Assembly: GCA_031257565.1 (NCBI GenBank)
Contig: JAIROL010000172.1
Location: 1-62,434 of the forward strand
Source: Tannerella sp.
GTDB taxonomy: Bacteria; Bacteroidota; Bacteroidia; Bacteroidales; Tannerellaceae
Reading direction: 5' to 3'
Length of the DNA: 62,434 nt
A program made the translations under genes and the position numbers. Below are positions 49,109-61,988 of this stretch, one piece after another. Position 1 is the stretch's first letter. Each line of letters starts with the position of its first letter. The notes beneath the pieces were generated by a model. It did not search any database. It saw only the letters and a list, made by a program, of their open reading frames with translations, and was not told the DNA's origin.

Positions 49109-49332
49109 ATGAAACGAACATGCAAAACGGCTTGCGCCAAAGAGTTATGAACATGCTGTGAGTTCTATGTTTCCTTAATGTTAAAAAATAAAAAATGTAC
49201 ACATGAAACGAACATGCAAAACGGCTTGCGCCAAAGAGTTATGAACATGCTGTGAGTTCTATGTTACCGAAATGTTAAAAATTAAATAATGTACACATGA
49301 AACGAACAAAAATAAATAATGTACTTATGAAA
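49109..49332 (+). repeat. Head-to-tail array of the 94-bp repeat: two full units plus one internally deleted unit
   Basis: ATGAAACG starts at 49109, 49203 and 49297 (period 94). The third unit is ATGAAACGAACA fused to AAAATAAATAATGTAC, followed by ATGAAA at 49327. Confidence 0.95.
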
Positions 49333-51624
49333 ATGCTTTTTAAATGCACGTTTCTTTTATGGCTACTGACTTCCTGTACCCATAATAATACCGTACAAGT
49401 CAAATATAAAGATTACTCGAAGGGAGATAATTTGAGGCTTTCCAACCGGTATTTCCCCGAATTTGGCGTCCAAAACTGGCAGGAAGAAGATTTCTTCACG
49501 GACAGCTACATTCAAATGATTGACGAGGCAAACGAAAAAACGCCGTATAATTTTCTGATCCCTTTTCTTCGTTTTCCTCATTATGAAGTAGTTGATTCAA
49601 TTGTATACAACCATGTGAAACGGGTGGCCGAATATGCCGTCCGGAAGAACGTGCAACTGGCGCCTGATTTGGACGTCCGTAACGCGCGGAGAGCCTACAA
49701 GGCAAAATATCCGGACGAATTGCAGCAAATGCTGCGCCTCAAGGAAACAGTATTGTACAATGCCGGCGCAACGGAAGCAGTCATTCGGAGCATTGACTTG
49801 AATGACCACTATTCAGGCGGAGCGCTCACGCACCACATTTCGCTCGAAGGAAATCTTTTGAGAGTTTATGCATATAAAAAATCCGAAACAGGCGTCATTT
49901 CCGAAACGCTTCAGGACATTACCGGCGACTGCGAAACAGTATATGCAACAGCCGACTCCGTCTGCATAAAAATTCCTGCACGGACGGATTTTACGCATGC
50001 TTCCGTACTGGTAGCATTTACCCATCTGTATCCCGACATTTTCGGGCCTCATCTGATGGAGTTTCAGCGGGGAATCATCGAACAGTACAGGGATGTGCCT
50101 CTTATCGGCGTCTGCAAGGACGAATGGGGATTCCCGCCTTATTATCCTCGCTTCTTCAGGGAAGGATTACACGATTTCTGGTATTCGGAACATCGCGCCA
50201 AAGCCTATGCCGAAGACTCCGGAGGGAGAGACTTGCTGGCCGACTGCCTGCTGATGGCCATCGGCGCACAGAACAGGGAATCCGAGCGTAAGGCGGCGAT
50301 CAACAGGTTCATGGAAATGTCCCGATTACGGCACACTGCGCTGGAAGTGGATTTTTACAACACGGTAAAAGCGGTTTTTGGGAAAGACGCCGTCGTCTCG
50401 GTACATGCCACATGGTGGCCCTATCCGGATAAATGCGAATTTCTGAAAAACGGACTCGACTGGTGGACGGCCAAACGCGACTGGGCGCAAACGGACGAGG
50501 TGACGCCATACGCCGTGCGCACAGCCTTATGCAAGAAATGGGGCAGTCCGGTTTGGTATAACATGTATTATAAAATGGATATGGTACCGCAGATGTGGAG
50601 TTCGGCGCTTGGCGGAGGACGAATCGACTACCTGCCTTATCAATCGCTGTTCCACCCCGAAGTCATGCTGGCCGAATGTCGTATCCGGCTTTTAAACTGC
50701 ATCAGTGAAAGTCCGACGGATTGCCCTGTGGCAGTCGTTTTCGGGCATTACGGCGCGATGAACTGGGCAGGGCCGCACTACGAAGATGCAGGGATGGAAC
50801 TTGTAGACAGTTTGTGGCGCACCGGTTATCCGACCGACCTGATTCCCACAACGGAAATCACAAACGGAAGCCTGACGGTAGACGAAAACGGAACGATTTG
50901 GTACGGAAAACAGGCTTATGCTGCCGTCGTACTATACAATCCGGAGTTTGAAAATGCTCCGGTCGCCGAGTTCTTCAACAAAGCCTCCAAAGGAAATACC
51001 GCACTGTTTCGCGTAGGCGAATGGACGGAAGATTTCGAAGGGAAGCCGTTTGACGGCAATCAACTGTTGCCCGCATCCATGACCATTGCTCGTGAAGCGC
51101 AGAACGCATTCGTTAAGGTTTGCCGTACGCTGGAGGAAAAACGCATTCCGAAACAAACGCCTGCAACCGGAATCCTGGACAATACGTATTTTCAACTCCG
51201 TGACTTCGAACATGTCTCTTGTGCGCCTCCGACTACCGGATTCTGTCGCCTGATTGACGGTACGGTGATTCACATTGCCGGAACGGATAATATAAGCGGC
51301 GACACGATACAAACGGATTTCAAGGTAAACGATTACGACGTTTCCGTCAATGCTGTCGGCGTTGCGGCCGTGCGCCTGGACGAAAACGGCAATCCGGAAG
51401 CGCTGGCTGCAGGCGGCCTGAAATCATTCAAGGCAGGAAATCTTGAAATCCTGCCGAATGACCACCGGATAGATTTGGCCTTATGGAAAAATCATGCCGG
51501 AAAATGGCAAGGCGTCATACAGGGATGGGACGGCGACATACCGGATGCTCTTTTACAAATCACCTCCGACTGGAGCCGATTGAACGTTCCTGTGCCGCCT
51601 GAATTTACTTTCCGCAGAAGATGA
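49327..51624 (+). CDS. PUL-encoded hypothetical lipoprotein, possible glycoside hydrolase
   Basis: Lipobox LTSC; directly downstream of susD; DEWG acidic motif; no family recognised. Confidence 0.7.
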   Translation: MKMLFKCTFLLWLLTSCTHNNTVQVKYKDYSKGDNLRLSNRYFPEFGVQNWQEEDFFTDSYIQMIDEANEKTPYNFLIPFLRFPHYEVVDSIVYNHVKRVAEYAVRKNVQLAPDLDVRNARRAYKAKYPDELQQMLRLKETVLYNAGATEAVIRSIDLNDHYSGGALTHHISLEGNLLRVYAYKKSETGVISETLQDITGDCETVYATADSVCIKIPARTDFTHASVLVAFTHLYPDIFGPHLMEFQRGIIEQYRDVPLIGVCKDEWGFPPYYPRFFREGLHDFWYSEHRAKAYAEDSGGRDLLADCLLMAIGAQNRESERKAAINRFMEMSRLRHTALEVDFYNTVKAVFGKDAVVSVHATWWPYPDKCEFLKNGLDWWTAKRDWAQTDEVTPYAVRTALCKKWGSPVWYNMYYKMDMVPQMWSSALGGGRIDYLPYQSLFHPEVMLAECRIRLLNCISESPTDCPVAVVFGHYGAMNWAGPHYEDAGMELVDSLWRTGYPTDLIPTTEITNGSLTVDENGTIWYGKQAYAAVVLYNPEFENAPVAEFFNKASKGNTALFRVGEWTEDFEGKPFDGNQLLPASMTIAREAQNAFVKVCRTLEEKRIPKQTPATGILDNTYFQLRDFEHVSCAPPTTGFCRLIDGTVIHIAGTDNISGDTIQTDFKVNDYDVSVNAVGVAAVRLDENGNPEALAAGGLKSFKAGNLEILPNDHRIDLALWKNHAGKWQGVIQGWDGDIPDALLQITSDWSRLNVPVPPEFTFRRR

Positions 51625-51699
51625 AAAAACTAAACTTTTTTCCTTTTTTATCATTTTTCAAGACAAAAATTCTATTTTTGTATTTATTTTATGAACTAT

Positions 51700-51841
51700 C
51701 CTGACTTTGACACTTGGGTGTCCCGGCGTTTTTAAGCCACTGAGAATTGCGTAAACGCCCTAAAAAAAATATTTTTTGCTTGCAAATATTCAATTCTCGC
51801 AGGGTTAAATTCAATTTGGGTGTCCCGGTGTCAAAGTCAGG
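51700..51841. mobile_element. 142-bp MITE with perfect 14-bp terminal inverted repeats and ~16-bp flanking direct repeats
   Basis: CCTGACTTTGACAC (51700-51713) / GTGTCAAAGTCAGG (51828-51841); flanks TTATTTTATGAACTAT (51684-51699) and TGATTTTATGAACTAT (51842-51857); internal TTGGGTGTCCCGG at 51714 and 51816. Confidence 0.85.
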
Positions 51842-51881
51842 TGATTTTATGAACTATATTGTAATTATTATTAGCTATACT

Positions 51882-54041
51882 ATGAAAATCAACGCGTTAA
51901 ACTTATTATTCGTTATCTTCTCATTTGCGTCATGCCAAACGCAAACGCCCAAAATCGACCGAGAAGCGCTTGTGAAACGCAACAATCCGTTAATAACGCA
52001 TTTCGACACGCTGGCCTCGCTGTCGGTGGGTAACGGCCGTTTCGCCGTCACGGTAGATGCTACCGGATTGCAAACGTTCCCCGAACTGTACGCCGCGGGA
52101 ACGCCGCTGGGCACGCAGTCGCACTGGGGATGGCACAGTTTTCCCAACGTAAAAGGATACCGATTTGAAGAAACTCTCGAAAGTTACGACTTCGGACACG
52201 GGCAGCCGGGATTGTATTCCGTGCAGCCGGGACCGTCGAGAGACCCCGCCGGGATGACAAAAATCATGCAGCGCATGGAGGCCGTAAACTATTTCCGCGC
52301 CAACCCGCACCGGCTGCATCTGGGTATCGTGGGACTGGAGCTGCTGCAGGCCGACGGCTCCCACGCCACGCCCGACAACATAGCCGGCGTCAGTCAGCAA
52401 GCGGACATGTGGAACGGGCTAATCCATTCTTCGTTTACGATGGAAGGTCATACCGTTCAGGTAAGCGCCGCCTGTCACCCTTCGGTCGACAGGCTCGCCG
52501 CCTCCGTCACATCGCTCTTGCTGAAAGAAAAACGTGCAGCCGTCAAATTCCGTTTTCCCTATCCTACCGGCCAACATTCGGACGACGCATGCGACTGGAA
52601 TCATCCCGATAGCCACCAAACAAAAATCGTCGGGCAGGGCGACTGCTTCGCCCTGCTCGAACGGAACATCGACACGACAACCTATTTCGTAAAAATAGTC
52701 TGGGAAGGACAAGCCTCGTTCAGGGAGAAGTCGCCTCATTATTTCGTACTGGAAACCTCGTCGGACAACCTGTCATTCACAGTCGATTATGCGCCCGAAA
52801 ACGCTTTTGCCGAAACGGAAACATTCGGCGAAACGGCTCGGCAATCGCAGAAACACTGGCAAGAGTTCTGGAAAAAGGGCGGCGCCGTCGATTTCTCGCT
52901 TTGCACGGACGAACGCGCCAAAGAACTGGAACGCCGCGTCGTCCTGTCGCAATACCTGACGGCCATCCAGAGCGCCGCTCCCGAACCGCCCCAGGAGACT
53001 GGATTGACATACAACAGCTGGTTCGGCAAATTCCACCTCGAAATGCACTGGTGGCATCAGGCGCACTTCGCCCTGTGGAACAGAACGGAAATGTTGAAGC
53101 CCAGCATGGAATGGTACAAAAAAGTCGAACCCGTCGCCCGCGAAATTGCAGCGCGGCAACATTTCGACGGCGTCCGCTGGATGAAAATGACCGATCCGTC
53201 GGGATCGGAAGCGCCCTCGTCGGTAGGCTCGTTCCTTATCTGGCAGCAACCGCATTACATCTACATGGCCGAACTGATACGCCGCCAGGAGCCGACGCGC
53301 GAAACGCTCGAACGCTACCTCCCGCTCGTGCTGGAAAGCGCCGCCTTTATGGTTTCTTTTGCCACGCTCGACGAAGCCGGTAACCGTTACGTGCTGAAAG
53401 GTTGCATCCCGGCACAGGAAACACTGCGCCCCGACGAGACGGTCAACCCGCCGTTCGAACTCTCCTACTGGCATTTCGCACTCTCCGTCGCCCAGCAGTG
53501 GCGTGAAAGGGCGGGGATGGGAAGAGATGCGAAATGGGACGACGTCATCCATCGCATCTCGCCTCTTGCAGAAAAAGACGGCCTGTATCTCGCCGCAGAA
53601 TCGGCTCCGCAAACCTATCAGGAACGGCGTTTTACGTCCGACCACATGATTGTGCTGGGAGCCGTGGGCATATTGCCCCAGTCGCCGCTGCTGAATCCGG
53701 ACGTCATGCGCCATACGTTCGACCGGGTATGGGACAACTGGAACTGGGACCATACGTGGGGATGGGATTATCCGACCACCGCCATGTGCGCCGCACGCCT
53801 GGGCGAACCCGAAAAGGCGGTAAACGCCCTGCTAACGGACAAGCAAACTAACACTTACCTGCCGAACGGACATAATTACCAGAACGACAGGCTGCGCATC
53901 TACCTTCCGGGCAATGGCGGACTGCTTGCCGCCGTCGCTATGATGTGCGCCGGATGGGACGGCAATACCCTCCCGACGCCGGGATTTCCCAAAGACGGCT
54001 CATGGAACGTTAGATGGGAAAACCTGTCGCCCATGCCATGA
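51882..54041 (+). CDS. Putative (alpha/alpha)6-barrel glycoside hydrolase lipoprotein (GH65/GH95-like, unassigned)
   Basis: Lipobox FASC; LSVGNG.FA..VD.TGLQ, PPQETGL..NSW.GKFHLEM, WGWD, YLPGNGGLL; PUL context. Confidence 0.7.
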   Translation: MKINALNLLFVIFSFASCQTQTPKIDREALVKRNNPLITHFDTLASLSVGNGRFAVTVDATGLQTFPELYAAGTPLGTQSHWGWHSFPNVKGYRFEETLESYDFGHGQPGLYSVQPGPSRDPAGMTKIMQRMEAVNYFRANPHRLHLGIVGLELLQADGSHATPDNIAGVSQQADMWNGLIHSSFTMEGHTVQVSAACHPSVDRLAASVTSLLLKEKRAAVKFRFPYPTGQHSDDACDWNHPDSHQTKIVGQGDCFALLERNIDTTTYFVKIVWEGQASFREKSPHYFVLETSSDNLSFTVDYAPENAFAETETFGETARQSQKHWQEFWKKGGAVDFSLCTDERAKELERRVVLSQYLTAIQSAAPEPPQETGLTYNSWFGKFHLEMHWWHQAHFALWNRTEMLKPSMEWYKKVEPVAREIAARQHFDGVRWMKMTDPSGSEAPSSVGSFLIWQQPHYIYMAELIRRQEPTRETLERYLPLVLESAAFMVSFATLDEAGNRYVLKGCIPAQETLRPDETVNPPFELSYWHFALSVAQQWRERAGMGRDAKWDDVIHRISPLAEKDGLYLAAESAPQTYQERRFTSDHMIVLGAVGILPQSPLLNPDVMRHTFDRVWDNWNWDHTWGWDYPTTAMCAARLGEPEKAVNALLTDKQTNTYLPNGHNYQNDRLRIYLPGNGGLLAAVAMMCAGWDGNTLPTPGFPKDGSWNVRWENLSPMP

Positions 54042-55792: not shown

Positions 55793-56656
55793 TTAGAGAT
55801 ACTCTTTTATCTTTTGCATTATTTGGGGATAAACAGGATATGAGGAAGCCGTAAATACTTCGTAATGCTTCTGCATGGTCGGCTTCCATTTACTTGGACA
55901 ATCAGGCATCAGTTGAAGCCAGCTCAGGACAGGACTCTGGAAAACGATAAACTGTTCGGTTGGGCCGTCTACATATTTTAAATCCGGATTATGATTCAGC
56001 GCTTCGGTAAACTTTTTAAGAATCCCATTGTATGTTTGGAGGGATAGGATTATAAAGTCGTCCAGAAGGTCGAACATATCATCCGAGTAAATCTCATAGC
56101 CGGGTTGTTCCGTTATTGCACGCTCTATGATGCAGTGCAGGATGGACATTCCCGCCGCATATTTTCCCGCATCCAATTCCGGCCTTGTGCGACTATAGAA
56201 ATTCTGCGCCATGGAATGTTGCATTTTCCACCACGGCAAGCCGCTTTTTTGGTAATGCTTCAGTTGCTTGATTCTGTCTGCATTGTTGGGCAGGGAGACC
56301 CATTTGTTTGCCTGTTCCGCATATCGGATGGTCTTCTCGTAGCTTTCCGCCCATAGTCCGATGAACCCAAAACAGTCGTATAATGGTGAGAATCTGAAGA
56401 TGGATTTCCACTTCTTATCTGCCTTGGCAAAAGGCTTGACAAATTCCAAGGCCATTTGAGACGCCTCGTAAGCGGCCAGTCCATCGCCGATATGGTGGCC
56501 GAGCAACACTGCTTCGTTAGCTTTCCCGATGGCATAATAGCCCGGATCGCCTTGCGCATACATGGTCGCTTCTTTACGTTTTTCCAGGGCGCTATTCAGC
56601 AGTCCCGCATCTTTCAGTTGAACACTCTCTACATATTTTTGCATAAATTCCTGCAT
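55793..56656 (-). CDS. Hypothetical helical (TPR-like) protein, paralog of 56676-57797
   Basis: KDAGLLNSALEKR, YAIGKANEAVLLGHHIGDG, WWK, YSR.RPE.D.G.YA.GMS.L.CI, PGYE, LLDD.II.SL shared with the neighbour. Confidence 0.85.
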   Translation of the reverse strand: MQEFMQKYVESVQLKDAGLLNSALEKRKEATMYAQGDPGYYAIGKANEAVLLGHHIGDGLAAYEASQMALEFVKPFAKADKKWKSIFRFSPLYDCFGFIGLWAESYEKTIRYAEQANKWVSLPNNADRIKQLKHYQKSGLPWWKMQHSMAQNFYSRTRPELDAGKYAAGMSILHCIIERAITEQPGYEIYSDDMFDLLDDFIILSLQTYNGILKKFTEALNHNPDLKYVDGPTEQFIVFQSPVLSWLQLMPDCPSKWKPTMQKHYEVFTASSYPVYPQIMQKIKEYL

Positions 56657-56675
56657 GGTTTTATCCTCCTTATTA

Positions 56676-57797
56676 TTAGTTTAAAAATTTTATAGCAGCA
56701 ATAATTCCCGTTATAATCATAATGATGATTGCCATGATGCAGCCTAAGGAAGATTTGGGGCGCTTTTTCTCGGCGATTCCCGTCTCTCGTGGGATATCAT
56801 TCAAGTTAAATTTTGGCATCTGCTGATTTTTCAAAGCGCGGGGGAACATCCCGGTTATTTTACCGCAATACCTGCATATCGGAGAGCCCTGGGCGATTTG
56901 CCGGCCGCAGACAGGGCAATCCGTCATGGCTTCGGGCAAATAGCGGGCAATGGGATTCATCCGGCTTTCTTTGTGTATCATGGCAAGCGTGAGCCAATAA
57001 TCGACGAAGTAATCCGTAAAGAGCGCTTTGTCTTTGGCTTCGAGAAGCGGGGCAAAGTCTGTCCATATTTGCAGGGCTTTTTCCAAAACGATCAGCATTT
57101 CTTCCGAATCGTCGGGAGTGGTGTATTGTCCGGCTTTGGCCTGGTATTTACTCAGCACATTCCGGAAGTGCTTTAGCGAGATGATGATGTAATCGTCCAG
57201 CAGGTGAACATGGGTATCGTAATCCAATTCGTAGCCGGGTTCTTCGGCAAAGGAACGGCCTACGATACATTGCAGTACGGACATTCCCTGGGCGTAGAGC
57301 CCTCGGTCCATTTCCGGGCGTTCCCGGCTGTAATAATCGTAAGCGATAGACAGTTGGGTTTTCCACCACTGCGGCTCTTTCCGGTGGCGATCTTCGATAG
57401 ACGCCAAATCCTGTTTCGCTTTGTCCGTGCCGGTCCATTGGACGCGCATTCTGTTTAATTCCTCACATTCTTCGTAGCTCGCAGACCATTGGCGGATGAT
57501 ATTGAAGATATCGTTCAATACCGTACAGCCGATTTCCTCCTCCCATTCTTTCGCGGCGGCACGGAAGGCCTCTATATGCTGCAAGGCTTTTTTTGCAGCG
57601 GCAAATGCGGCAATGCCGTCGCCAATATGATAGCCAAGCAGAATGGCTTCGTTGGCTTTCCCTAAGGCGTAATGGCCTTTATCATGTTTCATTCGTTCGG
57701 TGGCCGCTTCGCGTTTGGCCAGGGCGGACTTCAGCATACCCGCGTCTTTGAAGGCTGTGCTTTCTTTGTAAAGACGCAAAAAGTTTTTGTCAATCAT
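56676..57797 (-). CDS. Hypothetical helical protein with zinc ribbon and C-terminal TM anchor
   Basis: Same core as 55793-56656 plus CPVC-x10-CRYC and a hydrophobic tail (CIMAIIIMIITGIIAAI). Confidence 0.85.
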   Translation of the reverse strand: MIDKNFLRLYKESTAFKDAGMLKSALAKREAATERMKHDKGHYALGKANEAILLGYHIGDGIAAFAAAKKALQHIEAFRAAAKEWEEEIGCTVLNDIFNIIRQWSASYEECEELNRMRVQWTGTDKAKQDLASIEDRHRKEPQWWKTQLSIAYDYYSRERPEMDRGLYAQGMSVLQCIVGRSFAEEPGYELDYDTHVHLLDDYIIISLKHFRNVLSKYQAKAGQYTTPDDSEEMLIVLEKALQIWTDFAPLLEAKDKALFTDYFVDYWLTLAMIHKESRMNPIARYLPEAMTDCPVCGRQIAQGSPICRYCGKITGMFPRALKNQQMPKFNLNDIPRETGIAEKKRPKSSLGCIMAIIIMIITGIIAAIKFLN

Positions 57798-57806
57798 AAC
57801 TATTCT

Positions 57807-60800
57807 TTATTTATTGAGTTGGACGGAATAAATCCTCTCGTTGTTTTCGACCAATACAATCCGATGGTCTGCTCCGGACGATTGCAAACAGGACACGTTC
57901 CGATGCAGCGGCAAAGAAACGATCTGTGTGCCTGCGTCCAAATCCATCACACAAACCGCTCCTTCGGGATGGGCATAATACAGCATCCCGTCTTTAGCGG
58001 CCAGCCCAACCGGTTTTGCAGGCAAGGGTGCATCAAAAGAAATATGCCTTGTGCGGAAGTTGTCCGGAATACTTAACACGCTTGCTGTCGTATCGGAAAT
58101 TAAGTAGAGATTCTTTCGCGCACCGTCGTACGCCATATCCTTGATGGTTTTTTCGGCTGCATTGAAATGCTCCTCATACACCGGATGCCCGTCTTTGTCC
58201 AAAATCAGCAGAGCTTCTTCTTCAAAAAGATTCGCCGCCTTAACCAGCCTGCGTTTGGCGAGGATGCAAAAATACTTCCCGCATTCGCAAACCAGGTAGT
58301 TTTTCGTTGAACTCTGAAAGGCGTTGCTCCGGATGGTTTGCCCGTTTGGCGTAACGATAAGCGCCTCGCCGTCGCTGTAAAGGATAACAAAAGCGCCCAT
58401 CCCATCTACCCAGCGTATAGTTATGATGGCAGAGAGCGGGCCGGGCGCGGCAATCTCCTTTTGTGTTCCATCCGCAAAATCAAGCACGGCCGTCAGTCCG
58501 TTTCCCATGGAGAGAATATCTCCATGCGGATTCCATGCGCACTTGTAATTCAGCAGGGACGTCATGCCGTAGAGACTGTCCCGAAACGGATTAGGCAGTT
58601 TTACCTGTATGCCGTTCCGCCGGAACATCAGGGTATTGTTGCTGTCTACCACCAGCATCTCTGCTTTGCCGTCCTGTATAGTAGCTTGCAGGATTTGATT
58701 TTCGGACGACGCCACACCGGCCAGCAAAGCATAGCGATTGTTGGAGAAATAGAACGCCTTATTCGTCCCCACACGAAACAGGGATGGGTTTTTGTCCCAC
58801 TCAACGGCAAGCATACCCTGGCTTTTTACTCCTTTCCGGGGATGCCATGTGTAAAGAGCGCCATGTTCGTCGGACATCAGCAGGCGGTCCTTGAAAACCA
58901 CCGCACACCAGGGAACAAAGTCAAGCTCCAGCCTTGACTCCACTTCCGGGCCGGATGGGTCGCAGATGAGCAGATGGCGGTTGTTCGGGAGGATAATCAG
59001 TTTGTTGTTGAAACAGATCATATCATTAACGGAAGAATCCAGCCATACGTTTGCCGAATCCCGGCCGGTCAGCCGGTAGCCCTCTGTGGTTTTGTACAGT
59101 AGATACTCCTGTTGCGCCCTGAAATAACCGGCCAGGGTCTCCCCGTTATTCTCGATGGATTGTTCTTCCAAAGCATCGCGCAAGCATAAGGATTGGATTG
59201 CGTTTTCGGGCGTCTGATAAACCAAGCGGTTGGCATGGGCAAAAGCAAGAGCGCCGCTAAAGCGTATGCGCCGGCAATCTTTTGTAGCGCGCAGCGTACA
59301 GGACATAACCCCTCCGGCGCTGTCGCGTTGCAATGCATACACCGCAAAACTCCCGCGCATAACGGCTACCAGAATATGTCCGTCGGCATCGCAGAACAGT
59401 TTTTCAACCGGCGAATCTACGGACAGGGTAAACGTCGAAAGGGTCTGCATGGAATCTAATCCAACGACGCTCACCGTGTCGTGCGTGGTAAGTAAAAACA
59501 CCTCTTTCCGGTTTCCGGCAACACATCCGCCGTTTATATTTTCCATCTGCATACTTGCGGGTTTGATGGCTTCCGTATGGCTTTCTTCTATGCCTGTATC
59601 CGCTTTATCCATACGGAGCCATGGAGTGGCGCATAGCTTTGCTGCGTCGGATTTAAAGCCGGAGGACAGCTCTTTATAGAACGTAGCGGGAGCAATTTCC
59701 GGATGCTTTTCCAGCAGAGCCGCCGTGTCGTCAATGAACTGCATCATTTCATCCGGGATAACTCCTTCGGGCGCCAGATGCGACTCGGCTTTCAGGGCGT
59801 ACGCTCCTTCGCTTTGGTAATAACGGTTCAGGAAATCTACATCCGTATAGATGGACGTCAGATATTCCCGGTTGTTCGCTTCCCGTGCATGGTAGGCACA
59901 TTCGCCCGGACGAGAATCATACAGCGATTGGGCCAGAAGCTCATGCCATCCGCTTTTGCGGTATTTCTCCCGAGCGGCTTCTTTGAATGCGTCGTAAAGA
60001 AAATCAAACCTGCCGTTGTGCCGGATGAAAAACGGCCTCGCCTGACGAAGGAAAAAGCGAATGACGCCCGGTATTTCATTCCATACCCGGGGGAATACTT
60101 TTTCAAAGCAACGAATCAGTTCTTTTTCGCTCAAACCCTTCCGTGCGTGCGCCATCAGGCCGAACAGGAAAGAAACATACTCTCCGGGTGTGGAGATGTT
60201 GTAGGCGATATCGTTTTCCAGGCGCTCCAGCATTTGTGTAAATGCTTTCTGCGGCGTATCGCCGTACTTGGATATTTCTTCATTGAGTTGCTTAAAGGCG
60301 CCGAAGACCCGCAATTCGGAGAGCAGGATTTTCAGGAAAAGCGGGTTGCCGGACGCCTTGTTCCCGCAAATGGCGCGGATGTGTGAATGGTCGAGCGCTT
60401 TGAGGTTTCTCTTCAGATATTCGGTTATCAGCTTTTCTTTTTGTTCCATGCCTTTTGCGTCGTTCCGAATGGCTTGCAGACGAAGTATATAAAATGAATT
60501 GTTCGCTTCCAACTGTTTTATTTGCGCTTCCGTATCTTCATCCTGTTTGATACTGACGACGAGCTTCACCCCTTCGGGGAGTTCGTTTGGAATCCAATCC
60601 AGCATCGCTATTCCGCCTTGCATCTGGTTGACGGCGTCGATCAGCGCTATGGCGCGTCCGTTCTGTCCGGGCAACTCCTTCAGCAGGCACAAAAACTGCC
60701 GGCGTAATTTGTCTAACGAATCCGGAACTTCCATTCCGCCCTGCCGGATGATGCTATTCCATAAACCGTACACATCCGCCGACATATCCGAAACGCCGCA

Positions 60801-61988
60801 AAAACGGATAAAGAATCTGCTGTTCGATAAACGCGCATCTTCCTGCCAGGTCGTTGAGCAATGCGCCAAGAGGGTAGATTTCCCCAGCCCGGCCTCTGCC
60901 GACAACAATAACGGACGGCGTTCATTGTCGAATATATAGTTGTTCAGCTTATCGCAAATCTCCGGAACGGGGATAAAGCCTTCCGAAGCTTTTCGGGCAA
61001 ATAATTCCTGTTGTTCCAAATCCTGTTCGTAGCGGTTTCCCTGTTCTACAACCGGGGTTTTACGGTCTTTATATTCGTCCAGAATCTCCGCCATCAGTCC
61101 GGCAATCACCACGTATTTAAGCGCTATGTTTTCGTTGGATAACAGCTCCGGATATTCCTCTTCCAACTGCTTCCGCACCGCGTCGTTCAGGCAGGATGCG
61201 GGGATGGAGAAGTCCGTCAGCCTCCCTTTACACAGCGCCTCGTTTTCTTGCTTTTCTTCGCCTTCCAGTCCGGGTATCCTCAACTCCGGCGTAAGCGCTC
61301 CCTCCGGCTTCCAGGTGCAACGGTAATCCATCACCTTCGATTTAAACCGGGTGCGCACTTTGTTTTTGAAGTCCTCCAGTTCTGCCGTTACCCGCTTCGG
61401 GTTATCGCCATAGGTAGATACGGCGTCGTTCAGAAACAAATGGCGGTGCGGCGTATCCAAGTTCTCGTCAAAGGGGTTTTCCCGGAAGAAAAACAAGGAG
61501 TGTCGGTCTTTTTCGTACTTCGTTTCCTTATCATTGACCAGGCGAATCATCGGATTCAGCAGTGCATGTTCTATTTCCATTTCCGTAACGGAGGATTTCC
61601 CGGAGAGACTGCCTACTCGCCGGTATTCGTCGGTTGTTGCTTCATTAATTTCCGTTTCGACGGGGGGATACCCTGCTTCCTGTCGCCGTTTATTTTCGTA
61701 AGACAATCTCAGCGCGTCGTTGGGCACCCATCCTTTCCGCTGCCCTAAGAAGCAGAGGAAGAACGGGCGACTATCATCAATTCCGTTCAAACACTTACGC
61801 ACCGTATCGTTGGCTTCCGCATCGGCTTTGGTGATACCCCATCGCAAATCAATATCAATCAGCCGGAGCTTGCGTTGTTCACACCACTCGGCCAATTCGG
61901 GGAATACATTCTTTACCAGATAATCACGCTCGGCGTGCATATCGTTGAATGTACTACTGATAAAAATATGTATGTTTTTCCACTGCAT
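57807..61988 (-). CDS. DUF4062 - NACHT/STAND NTPase - C-terminal beta-rich repeat protein (NLR-like, TEP1/NWD1-type architecture)
   Basis: IFISSTFNDMHAERDYL..VFPEL..IDLRWG (DUF4062), SVTEMEI, Walker A AEAGLGKST, Walker B ALIDAVNQ, GNPLFL, beta-rich C-terminal ~570 aa. Confidence 0.88.
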   Translation of the reverse strand: MQWKNIHIFISSTFNDMHAERDYLVKNVFPELAEWCEQRKLRLIDIDLRWGITKADAEANDTVRKCLNGIDDSRPFFLCFLGQRKGWVPNDALRLSYENKRRQEAGYPPVETEINEATTDEYRRVGSLSGKSSVTEMEIEHALLNPMIRLVNDKETKYEKDRHSLFFFRENPFDENLDTPHRHLFLNDAVSTYGDNPKRVTAELEDFKNKVRTRFKSKVMDYRCTWKPEGALTPELRIPGLEGEEKQENEALCKGRLTDFSIPASCLNDAVRKQLEEEYPELLSNENIALKYVVIAGLMAEILDEYKDRKTPVVEQGNRYEQDLEQQELFARKASEGFIPVPEICDKLNNYIFDNERRPLLLSAEAGLGKSTLLAHCSTTWQEDARLSNSRFFIRFCGVSDMSADVYGLWNSIIRQGGMEVPDSLDKLRRQFLCLLKELPGQNGRAIALIDAVNQMQGGIAMLDWIPNELPEGVKLVVSIKQDEDTEAQIKQLEANNSFYILRLQAIRNDAKGMEQKEKLITEYLKRNLKALDHSHIRAICGNKASGNPLFLKILLSELRVFGAFKQLNEEISKYGDTPQKAFTQMLERLENDIAYNISTPGEYVSFLFGLMAHARKGLSEKELIRCFEKVFPRVWNEIPGVIRFFLRQARPFFIRHNGRFDFLYDAFKEAAREKYRKSGWHELLAQSLYDSRPGECAYHAREANNREYLTSIYTDVDFLNRYYQSEGAYALKAESHLAPEGVIPDEMMQFIDDTAALLEKHPEIAPATFYKELSSGFKSDAAKLCATPWLRMDKADTGIEESHTEAIKPASMQMENINGGCVAGNRKEVFLLTTHDTVSVVGLDSMQTLSTFTLSVDSPVEKLFCDADGHILVAVMRGSFAVYALQRDSAGGVMSCTLRATKDCRRIRFSGALAFAHANRLVYQTPENAIQSLCLRDALEEQSIENNGETLAGYFRAQQEYLLYKTTEGYRLTGRDSANVWLDSSVNDMICFNNKLIILPNNRHLLICDPSGPEVESRLELDFVPWCAVVFKDRLLMSDEHGALYTWHPRKGVKSQGMLAVEWDKNPSLFRVGTNKAFYFSNNRYALLAGVASSENQILQATIQDGKAEMLVVDSNNTLMFRRNGIQVKLPNPFRDSLYGMTSLLNYKCAWNPHGDILSMGNGLTAVLDFADGTQKEIAAPGPLSAIITIRWVDGMGAFVILYSDGEALIVTPNGQTIRSNAFQSSTKNYLVCECGKYFCILAKRRLVKAANLFEEEALLILDKDGHPVYEEHFNAAEKTIKDMAYDGARKNLYLISDTTASVLSIPDNFRTRHISFDAPLPAKPVGLAAKDGMLYYAHPEGAVCVMDLDAGTQIVSLPLHRNVSCLQSSGADHRIVLVENNERIYSVQLNK

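Follow-up and report, generated by a model that had tools for sequence, protein, structure and literature searches.

A helical partner protein family linked to the propeller type of a TEP1-like DUF4062-NACHT receptor in bacteria

A three-gene locus of Tannerella sp. encodes a new member of a described receptor family, the TeTIR/NIR-NACHT-WD40 proteins (protein A), together with two proteins, B and C, of a partner family that is the new element of the locus and is linked to the type of propeller carried by the receptor. In the window, i.e. the whole stretch of DNA analysed (62,434 nucleotides, contig JAIROL010000172.1), the three genes lie on the minus strand in the order A, B, C, separated by gaps of 9 and 19 nt. 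A GH43 gene on the plus strand, part of a SusC/SusD locus, converges with the trio, 104 nt separating its stop from the end of gene C. The open reading frames, gaps, motifs and convergence on the polysaccharide locus (PUL) are as described in an earlier, sequence-only reading of this DNA. The features are:

57807..61988, minus strand: gene A, 1393 aa TeTIR/NIR (DUF4062)-NACHT-tandem beta-propeller STAND protein
60999..61988, minus strand: gene A residues 1–330, TEP1-type DUF4062 (TeTIR/NIR) effector domain, with RWG 49–51, R84 and predicted catalytic E138 (codon 61575–61577)
59622..60998, minus strand: gene A residues 331–789, NACHT/STAND module, with Walker A 364–372 (K370), Walker B 448–455 and GNPLFL 547–552
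57810..59621, minus strand: gene A residues 790–1393, predicted tandem beta-propeller sensor of the subtype that co-occurs with the partner family
56676..57797, minus strand: gene B, 373 aa, with helical core 1–290 (first 143 aa TPR-like), Zn ribbon 294–313, flexible linker and C-terminal transmembrane helix 351–372
55793..56656, minus strand: gene C, 287 aa, partner core only, second clade

The locus and its receptor

The contig stops 446 nt upstream of gene A, which places the upstream neighbourhood outside view, and the stretch upstream of gene A at this contig end is common to another contig end. The visible neighbours (15 scanned) belong to the polysaccharide locus or are housekeeping genes; no defence genes were found among them, and the window is not a defence island. 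A functional tie of the trio to the adjoining polysaccharide locus was considered and rejected because no such locus is present at the other partner loci. Two large genes of that locus (775 and 764 aa; window 49297–54041) have no Pfam match at E 1e-5. Promoter and terminator scans gave matches at chance level only. One metatranscriptome run contained short contigs 95–99% alike to A and C, but these do not support expression of either gene, because comparable scattered cover is seen elsewhere in the window.

DUF4062 (residues 8–100, E 7e-10) and NACHT (residues 359–494, E 3e-6; PF05729 27.7 bits versus a cut-off of 26.7) both score above their Pfam cut-offs in A, in line with the earlier domain assignment. 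The N-terminal domain matches the human TEP1 TIR-like structure 11gz_A with E 2.6e-16 as a single sequence and about 1e-35 (1.2e-35) by profile, which bears out the TEP1-type, NLR-like STAND architecture proposed before; its match to Swarozyc KpSwz is far weaker (E 3e-3). As in TEP1-like proteins, a DUF4062-type domain of the 200–350 aa class stands directly upstream of NACHT. Chain residues 15, 61 and 83 of 11gz_A correspond to R908, R954 and R976 as named in the text of 10.64898/2026.05.01.722283, giving an offset of 893; the second Glu of SVTEME (chain residue 115) is therefore the catalytic E1008, and it is this residue with which E138 of A aligns. E138 is invariant in 11/11 aligned relatives. 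The RWG motif (R49-W50-G51) and the equivalent of R976 are also retained in A, but residues other than Arg stand at the positions of R908 and R954, two of the three Arg of the TEP1 active site. The Acidobacteriota versions of the receptor are without the SVTExE motif.

The N-terminal domain is a predicted NAD+-cleaving domain on the example of its relatives. DUF4062/TeTIR is treated as a NADase-type effector in recent preprints (10.64898/2026.05.01.722283; 10.64898/2026.06.25.731849; 10.64898/2026.09.04.749371; 10.64898/2026.09.21.753143), and DUF4062 is described as an anti-phage NADase in Swarozyc, PsAvs2, Vulcan and Vesta (10.64898/2026.05.01.722283; 10.64898/2026.09.04.749371). For three isolated prokaryotic TeTIR domains, no detectable NADase activity is reported (10.64898/2026.09.21.753143).

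The NACHT motifs AEAGLGKST, ALIDAVNQ and GNPLFL start at residues 364, 448 and 547, respectively. The Walker A motif is intact; that of Walker B, DAVNQ, departs from the D[GAS]hDE signature, its small and hydrophobic positions being retained with NQ in place of the acids; NQ occupies this position in 15 of 20 related rows, partnered and partner-less alike. The tail (residues 790–1393) is predicted to be all-beta (pLDDT 87). It has no WD40 Pfam match, as expected from the earlier description of a beta-rich tail without canonical WD repeats, to which the model adds that its top Foldseek matches are tandem WD propellers, e.g. Utp21 and Apaf-1 (E about 1e-15 to 1e-17, TM 0.27–0.49), so that a C-terminal WD40/TPR region is present by predicted fold only. 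Given the TEP1-type N-terminus, the retained Glu, the NACHT and the propeller model, A therefore belongs to the TeTIR/NIR-NACHT-WD40 family, prokaryotic members of which already appear in 2026 preprints (10.64898/2026.06.25.731849; 10.64898/2026.09.04.749371; 10.64898/2026.09.21.753143).

With human TEP1, NWD1/2 and prokaryotic TEP1-like proteins, A shares domain order, RWG and the position of the catalytic Glu (10.64898/2026.09.21.753143; 10.64898/2026.05.01.722283; 10.64898/2026.09.04.749371); like the other prokaryotic TEP1-like members described there, it is without TROVE/vWA. In contrast to TEP1-like proteins, its propeller is too divergent for WD40 profiles, and it has a co-encoded partner family of a kind that the available text of the TEP1-like papers does not mention. 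Avs/bNACHT proteins such as PsAvs2, the NIR effector of which depletes NAD+, have the same effector-STAND-repeat layout (10.64898/2026.09.04.749371), and bacterial STANDs with propeller sensors like that of APAF-1 are known (10.64898/2026.09.04.749371; PMC13581612; 10.1101/2022.07.19.500537). However, Avs sensors, as described in the same three sources, recognise phage proteins by direct binding or with the help of housekeeping co-factors (EF-Tu, DnaJ), whereas A has a private partner conserved across phyla. bNACHT genes are reported to occur only rarely, and with poor conservation, in operons (10.1101/2022.07.19.500537); nor does A match a curated Avs/bNACHT system model (PADLOC).

Swarozyc, Evangelion, Vulcan and Vesta share the DUF4062 effector family with A but are without NACHT or propeller, whereas A has a NACHT and a 600-aa propeller. 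Swarozyc and Evangelion are single genes that combine DUF4062 with a short auxiliary domain and no STAND, an arrangement that A does not have, and the second gene of Vesta is a phosphatase, unlike B and C. The APAF-1 apoptosome, in which a STAND repeat domain is gated by a separate protein, is an analogy in working rather than in descent: Apaf-1 is among the fold matches of the A tail, but B and C are not homologous to cytochrome c, and A is NACHT-type with a NADase-type effector, not a CARD. The same holds for plant ZAR1-RKS1, where a separate protein likewise gates the repeat domain of a STAND; B and C are not homologous to ZRK pseudokinases, and the effector of A is not a coiled coil.

In line with the earlier impression of a module unlike any named system, neither PADLOC (dating from 2023) nor NCBIfam has a family or model for A, B or C, and PHROGs gave no informative match. 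The earlier reading did not take into account that bacterial DUF4062-NACHT-WD40 proteins have already been described and that DUF4062 is known as a TIR-like NADase. PADLOC also returned no match for five further partnered receptors and four further partners. No description of the partner family was found in the running text of the literature, PMC8195603 and 10.64898/2026.06.25.731849 included; panel S1G of 10.64898/2026.05.01.722283, Fig. 2 of 10.64898/2026.09.04.749371 and the bNACHT tables could show it.

The partner family and its loci

B and C are paralogues, as had been suggested (38% identity over 264 columns, E 2e-57; no PADLOC/NCBIfam name for either), and head separate clades in a quick tree (SH-aLRT 99 each); no further paralogue was found in their own genome. 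The family is small, with 18 close proteins and 42 representatives at E 1e-10 or better in a database of 1.84 billion, where matches below rank 48 mostly cover the Zn ribbon or transmembrane tail only. Its core of 270–290 aa is all helical (pLDDT 88). Residues 1–143 of B superimpose on TPR domains with Z 12.3 (rmsd 2.6, 123 aligned), against a bar of Z ~13 set by the tool for helical repeats. No TPR Pfam match was found in B or C, and within the family only the remote member P0116 scores above TPR cut-offs. The best Foldseek match of the partner has E 0.01, no enzyme fold is among its top PDB matches, and a PDB sequence search with the partner profile returned nothing. No named fold was found for the C-terminal half of the core, the ESM Atlas leads being only unnamed or TPR-like. 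Conserved motifs are YSR..D.G.Y and LDD, and the conserved polar residues in C are R156, D162, Y187 and D200.

The appendages to this core vary: a Zn ribbon, one to four transmembrane helices, a segment between two transmembrane helices, DUF3592 and, in P0037, an FGE-sulfatase domain. In B, the Zn ribbon (294–313) scores below the Pfam cut-off; C has neither Zn ribbon nor C-terminal transmembrane helix, although its closest orthologues (L001, L028) bear two C-terminal transmembrane helices. A transmembrane helix is present in 19 of the 25 partners scored, a count from which, as from the partner tree, the L031 member was left out. At least one membrane-anchored partner is encoded at 16/18 partner-bearing loci of the linked clades, the exceptions being L008, where the contig is cut, and L014, where the receptor is broken. 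The idea that the partners are decoys mimicking viral proteins was rejected, with no BFVD match at E 0.001 or better. No partner or propeller relatives were found in viral contigs, and no partners in plasmids.

True family members occur at 20 distinct loci, the window included, and upstream DNA is visible at 19 of these (L010 begins inside the first partner). Seven loci had been excluded as false positives before counting (L012, L013, L015, L016, L033, L020, L021): those of L012, L013, L015 and L016 are short matches in genes that we take to be PspA-like, and those of L020 and L021 match the Zn ribbon only. At 17 of the 19 loci the partner immediately follows a DUF4062-NACHT-beta gene or as much of its C-terminal end as is visible (the window, L001–L009, L011, L014 and L028; L025–L027 from Acidobacteriota; and the remote Bacillota locus L044), a linkage that spans Bacteroidota, Acidobacteriota and Bacillota. 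At L002, L003, L007, L008 and L011 the receptor is seen by its C-terminal end only. Receptor-partner gaps are mostly −20 to +38 nt, with one of 145. The loci are few and, because many are kin, are not independent trials.

B and C stand in tandem at seven of the 18 partner-bearing loci of the linked clades and a single partner at 11, some of these on short contigs. The conserved unit is A with one or two partners; because 11/18 loci show one partner, the notion of a fixed three-gene system does not hold. The sequence-only reading had also proposed that B and C are dedicated partners, an idea to be abandoned if partner homologues occurred independently of NACHT genes. The tight linkage to the receptor type (17/19 loci) speaks for dedication, but independence is seen in part, because one Bacillota sub-clade occurs without the receptor: its two members (L031, L032) stand alone at both loci seen. 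Neither the TEP1-type DUF4062 profile nor the propeller profile found a match in the genomes of these two, MAGs that may be incomplete.

The module is rare, being present in 2/46 congeners (the L001 genome, G001, is congeneric with that of the window) and 1/301 Acidobacteriota, the latter being the centre genome itself; of the Bacillota surveyed, 251 genomes yielded a single new locus (G421) and 401 yielded no new one. Among the neighbours at other loci are further DUF4062 STANDs, a single-domain DUF4062 gene that follows a partner pair (L010:1996-3075), an 8xMP membrane gene in front of the receptor (L009:3707-4186) and TIR genes, one of them near a solo partner (L031:2799-3425). At L014:1547-9992 a receptor with an in-frame deletion of about residues 119–894 lies behind a transposase-like gene and is followed by an intact partner, a DUF4062-NACHT-TPR gene and three short TPR genes.

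Propeller type and partner

The propeller type is common to 10/11 partnered proteins and to 0/12 partner-less relatives. A profile built only from the seven propellers of the window clade scores three Acidobacteriota partnered proteins at 134–152 bits over their full length, and all 12 partner-less relatives at no more than 3.3 bits. Partnership does not follow the ATPase: the partner-less paralogue L029 is nearer to A in NACHT (280 bits) than are the Acidobacteriota proteins (79–119 bits), and likewise in the N-terminal domain. On the NACHT tree the partner label needs two changes, and a single clade of partnered NACHTs is rejected by the AU test (p-AU 8e-5; 20 rows, excluding the long branches L050, L080 and L074b). 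L044 departs from this pattern: its NACHT falls with the window clade, but its propeller reaches only 2.5 bits with an independent profile. The simplest reading of these sequence relationships is that propeller and partner moved together between NACHT chassis.

Across 101 genomes (the window's own and 100 relatives), 23 TEP1-type DUF4062 matches occur in ten genomes, whereas the propeller profile finds four loci in three genomes, identical to the four loci with full-length partners; the other receptors examined differ from these in both their sensors and the genes downstream. The window genome itself has three DUF4062-NACHT receptors with differing sensors, one of which is encoded by a second DUF4062-NACHT-WD40 gene (L029:219-5964, contig C196; 1483 aa) with a canonical TPR gene after it.

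Binding between the A propeller and C is weakly predicted. Co-folding gave a score of 0.45 versus 0.00 for three controls (contact agreement at least 68%, partner pLDDT at least 87), and passes at such scores are more often wrong than right unless the complex is likely beforehand. In the calibration, the mark was reached by 116/157 solved complexes and 2/215 mismatches, of which 18/157 and both mismatches lie at 0.60 or below.

Possible roles of the partners and further gene associations

We tentatively favour, at somewhat under an even chance, a role of B and C as putative dedicated adaptor or co-sensor subunits of a TEP1/APAF-1-like NAD+-depleting receptor. We do so because a constant core carries appendages that differ between members, a known STAND sensor domain among them, because two clades are kept side by side with either seeming sufficient, and because a membrane anchor is encoded at nearly all partner-bearing loci of the linked clades. 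B and C would dock on the tandem beta-propeller of A, with B anchoring the complex in the inner membrane; once a signal linked to infection was captured, by the pattern of relatives a phage trigger, NACHT would oligomerise, and NAD+ depletion and abortive death would follow. The membrane-tethered adaptor subunits would set specificity, each paralogue adding one, as the ZRK/RKS1 adaptors add specificity to plant ZAR1, which we offer as an analogy for the B/C paralogues.

In a rival reading, B and C would bind A as inhibitors or guarded baits, the loss or modification of which in infection would free the NADase (toxin-antitoxin or guard logic). The linkage and the weak propeller-C complex score suit this too, the propeller subtype is never seen without a partner (4/4 and 3/3 loci, a receptor-side sample of only seven loci) although partners do occur alone, and the receptor deleted in frame at L014 stands next to an intact partner. 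However, STANDs are normally inhibited by their own repeats, according to the account of APAF-1 in 10.64898/2026.05.01.722283, and variable appendages including FGE-sulfatase, a domain that serves as a STAND sensor (PMC13581612; 10.1101/2022.07.19.500537), suit sensing better than simple inhibition; we regard this role as unlikely, if well short of negligible.

It is less likely still that the proteins form a non-defence signalling or scaffolding complex, in which the TeTIR would be catalytically quiet, as in NWD2 or NPHP3, with the membrane partner passing on a stress or envelope signal. The inactivity of isolated prokaryotic TeTIRs (10.64898/2026.09.21.753143), the listing of TEP1 among non-immune STANDs (PMC13581612), the 15 scanned neighbours free of defence genes and the PADLOC searches without a match for A, B, C or the further receptors and partners agree with such a role; the invariance of E138, the patchy spread typical of defence genes (in congeners and Acidobacteriota alike), the DUF4062 STAND, single-domain DUF4062, 8xMP and TIR neighbours at other loci and the reported enrichment of NIR genes near defence genes (10.64898/2026.09.04.749371) do not. 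Least probable of the readings considered is that B and C make no contact with the sensor, whether as co-inherited passengers or as downstream effectors that could act on their own via YSR..D.G.Y and LDD or at the membrane: the solo clade exists, the four polar residues of C could form an active site and half of the core has no named fold, but the linkage stays with the propeller even where the N-terminal domain and NACHT have been exchanged, and enzyme folds are absent from the top PDB matches.

Extending the adaptor or co-sensor reading, B and C could be exchangeable co-encoded membrane-tethered adaptors, propeller and adaptor forming one module placed onto different NACHT-effector chassis, and the adaptor could be the missing activator of TEP1-type NADases; we consider this broader proposal rather unlikely. 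For the WD40 domains of TEP1-type proteins, one preprint speculates about a yet unnamed signal (10.64898/2026.05.01.722283), and a bacterial receptor with a co-encoded, propeller-linked partner offers a small cloneable system for the gating of NACHT-WD40 TeTIR proteins, human TEP1 included. If the adaptor reading is true, indirect, adaptor-based membrane recognition joins bacterial STAND immunity, where direct phage-protein binding dominates the described cases.

Other associations were observed around DUF4062-NACHT genes. A P-loop ATPase of 730–915 aa recurs just upstream of them, in some cases accompanied by a TrkA_N-RyR gene and a small gene that encodes RyR alone (L030:8863-11534, contig C45 of the window genome; L001:2554-4755; L006:676-3114; L075:5320-7835; L078:3919-8331; L025:1742-4489), and is possibly a second undescribed conserved association. 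No PADLOC match was obtained for the two ATPases scanned, and no description was found in the literature search; RyR domains are present in 3/4 of those scanned for them, the exception being L025. An Acidobacteriota island (L025:5626-19618) contains several DUF4062 genes, a WD40 gene and two inositol-monophosphatase-family genes, and at L074:2649-13657 a double-AAA gene, a DUF4062-NACHT gene, a small tubulin/FtsZ-like gene and a DUF4062-NACHT-helical gene stand in a row.
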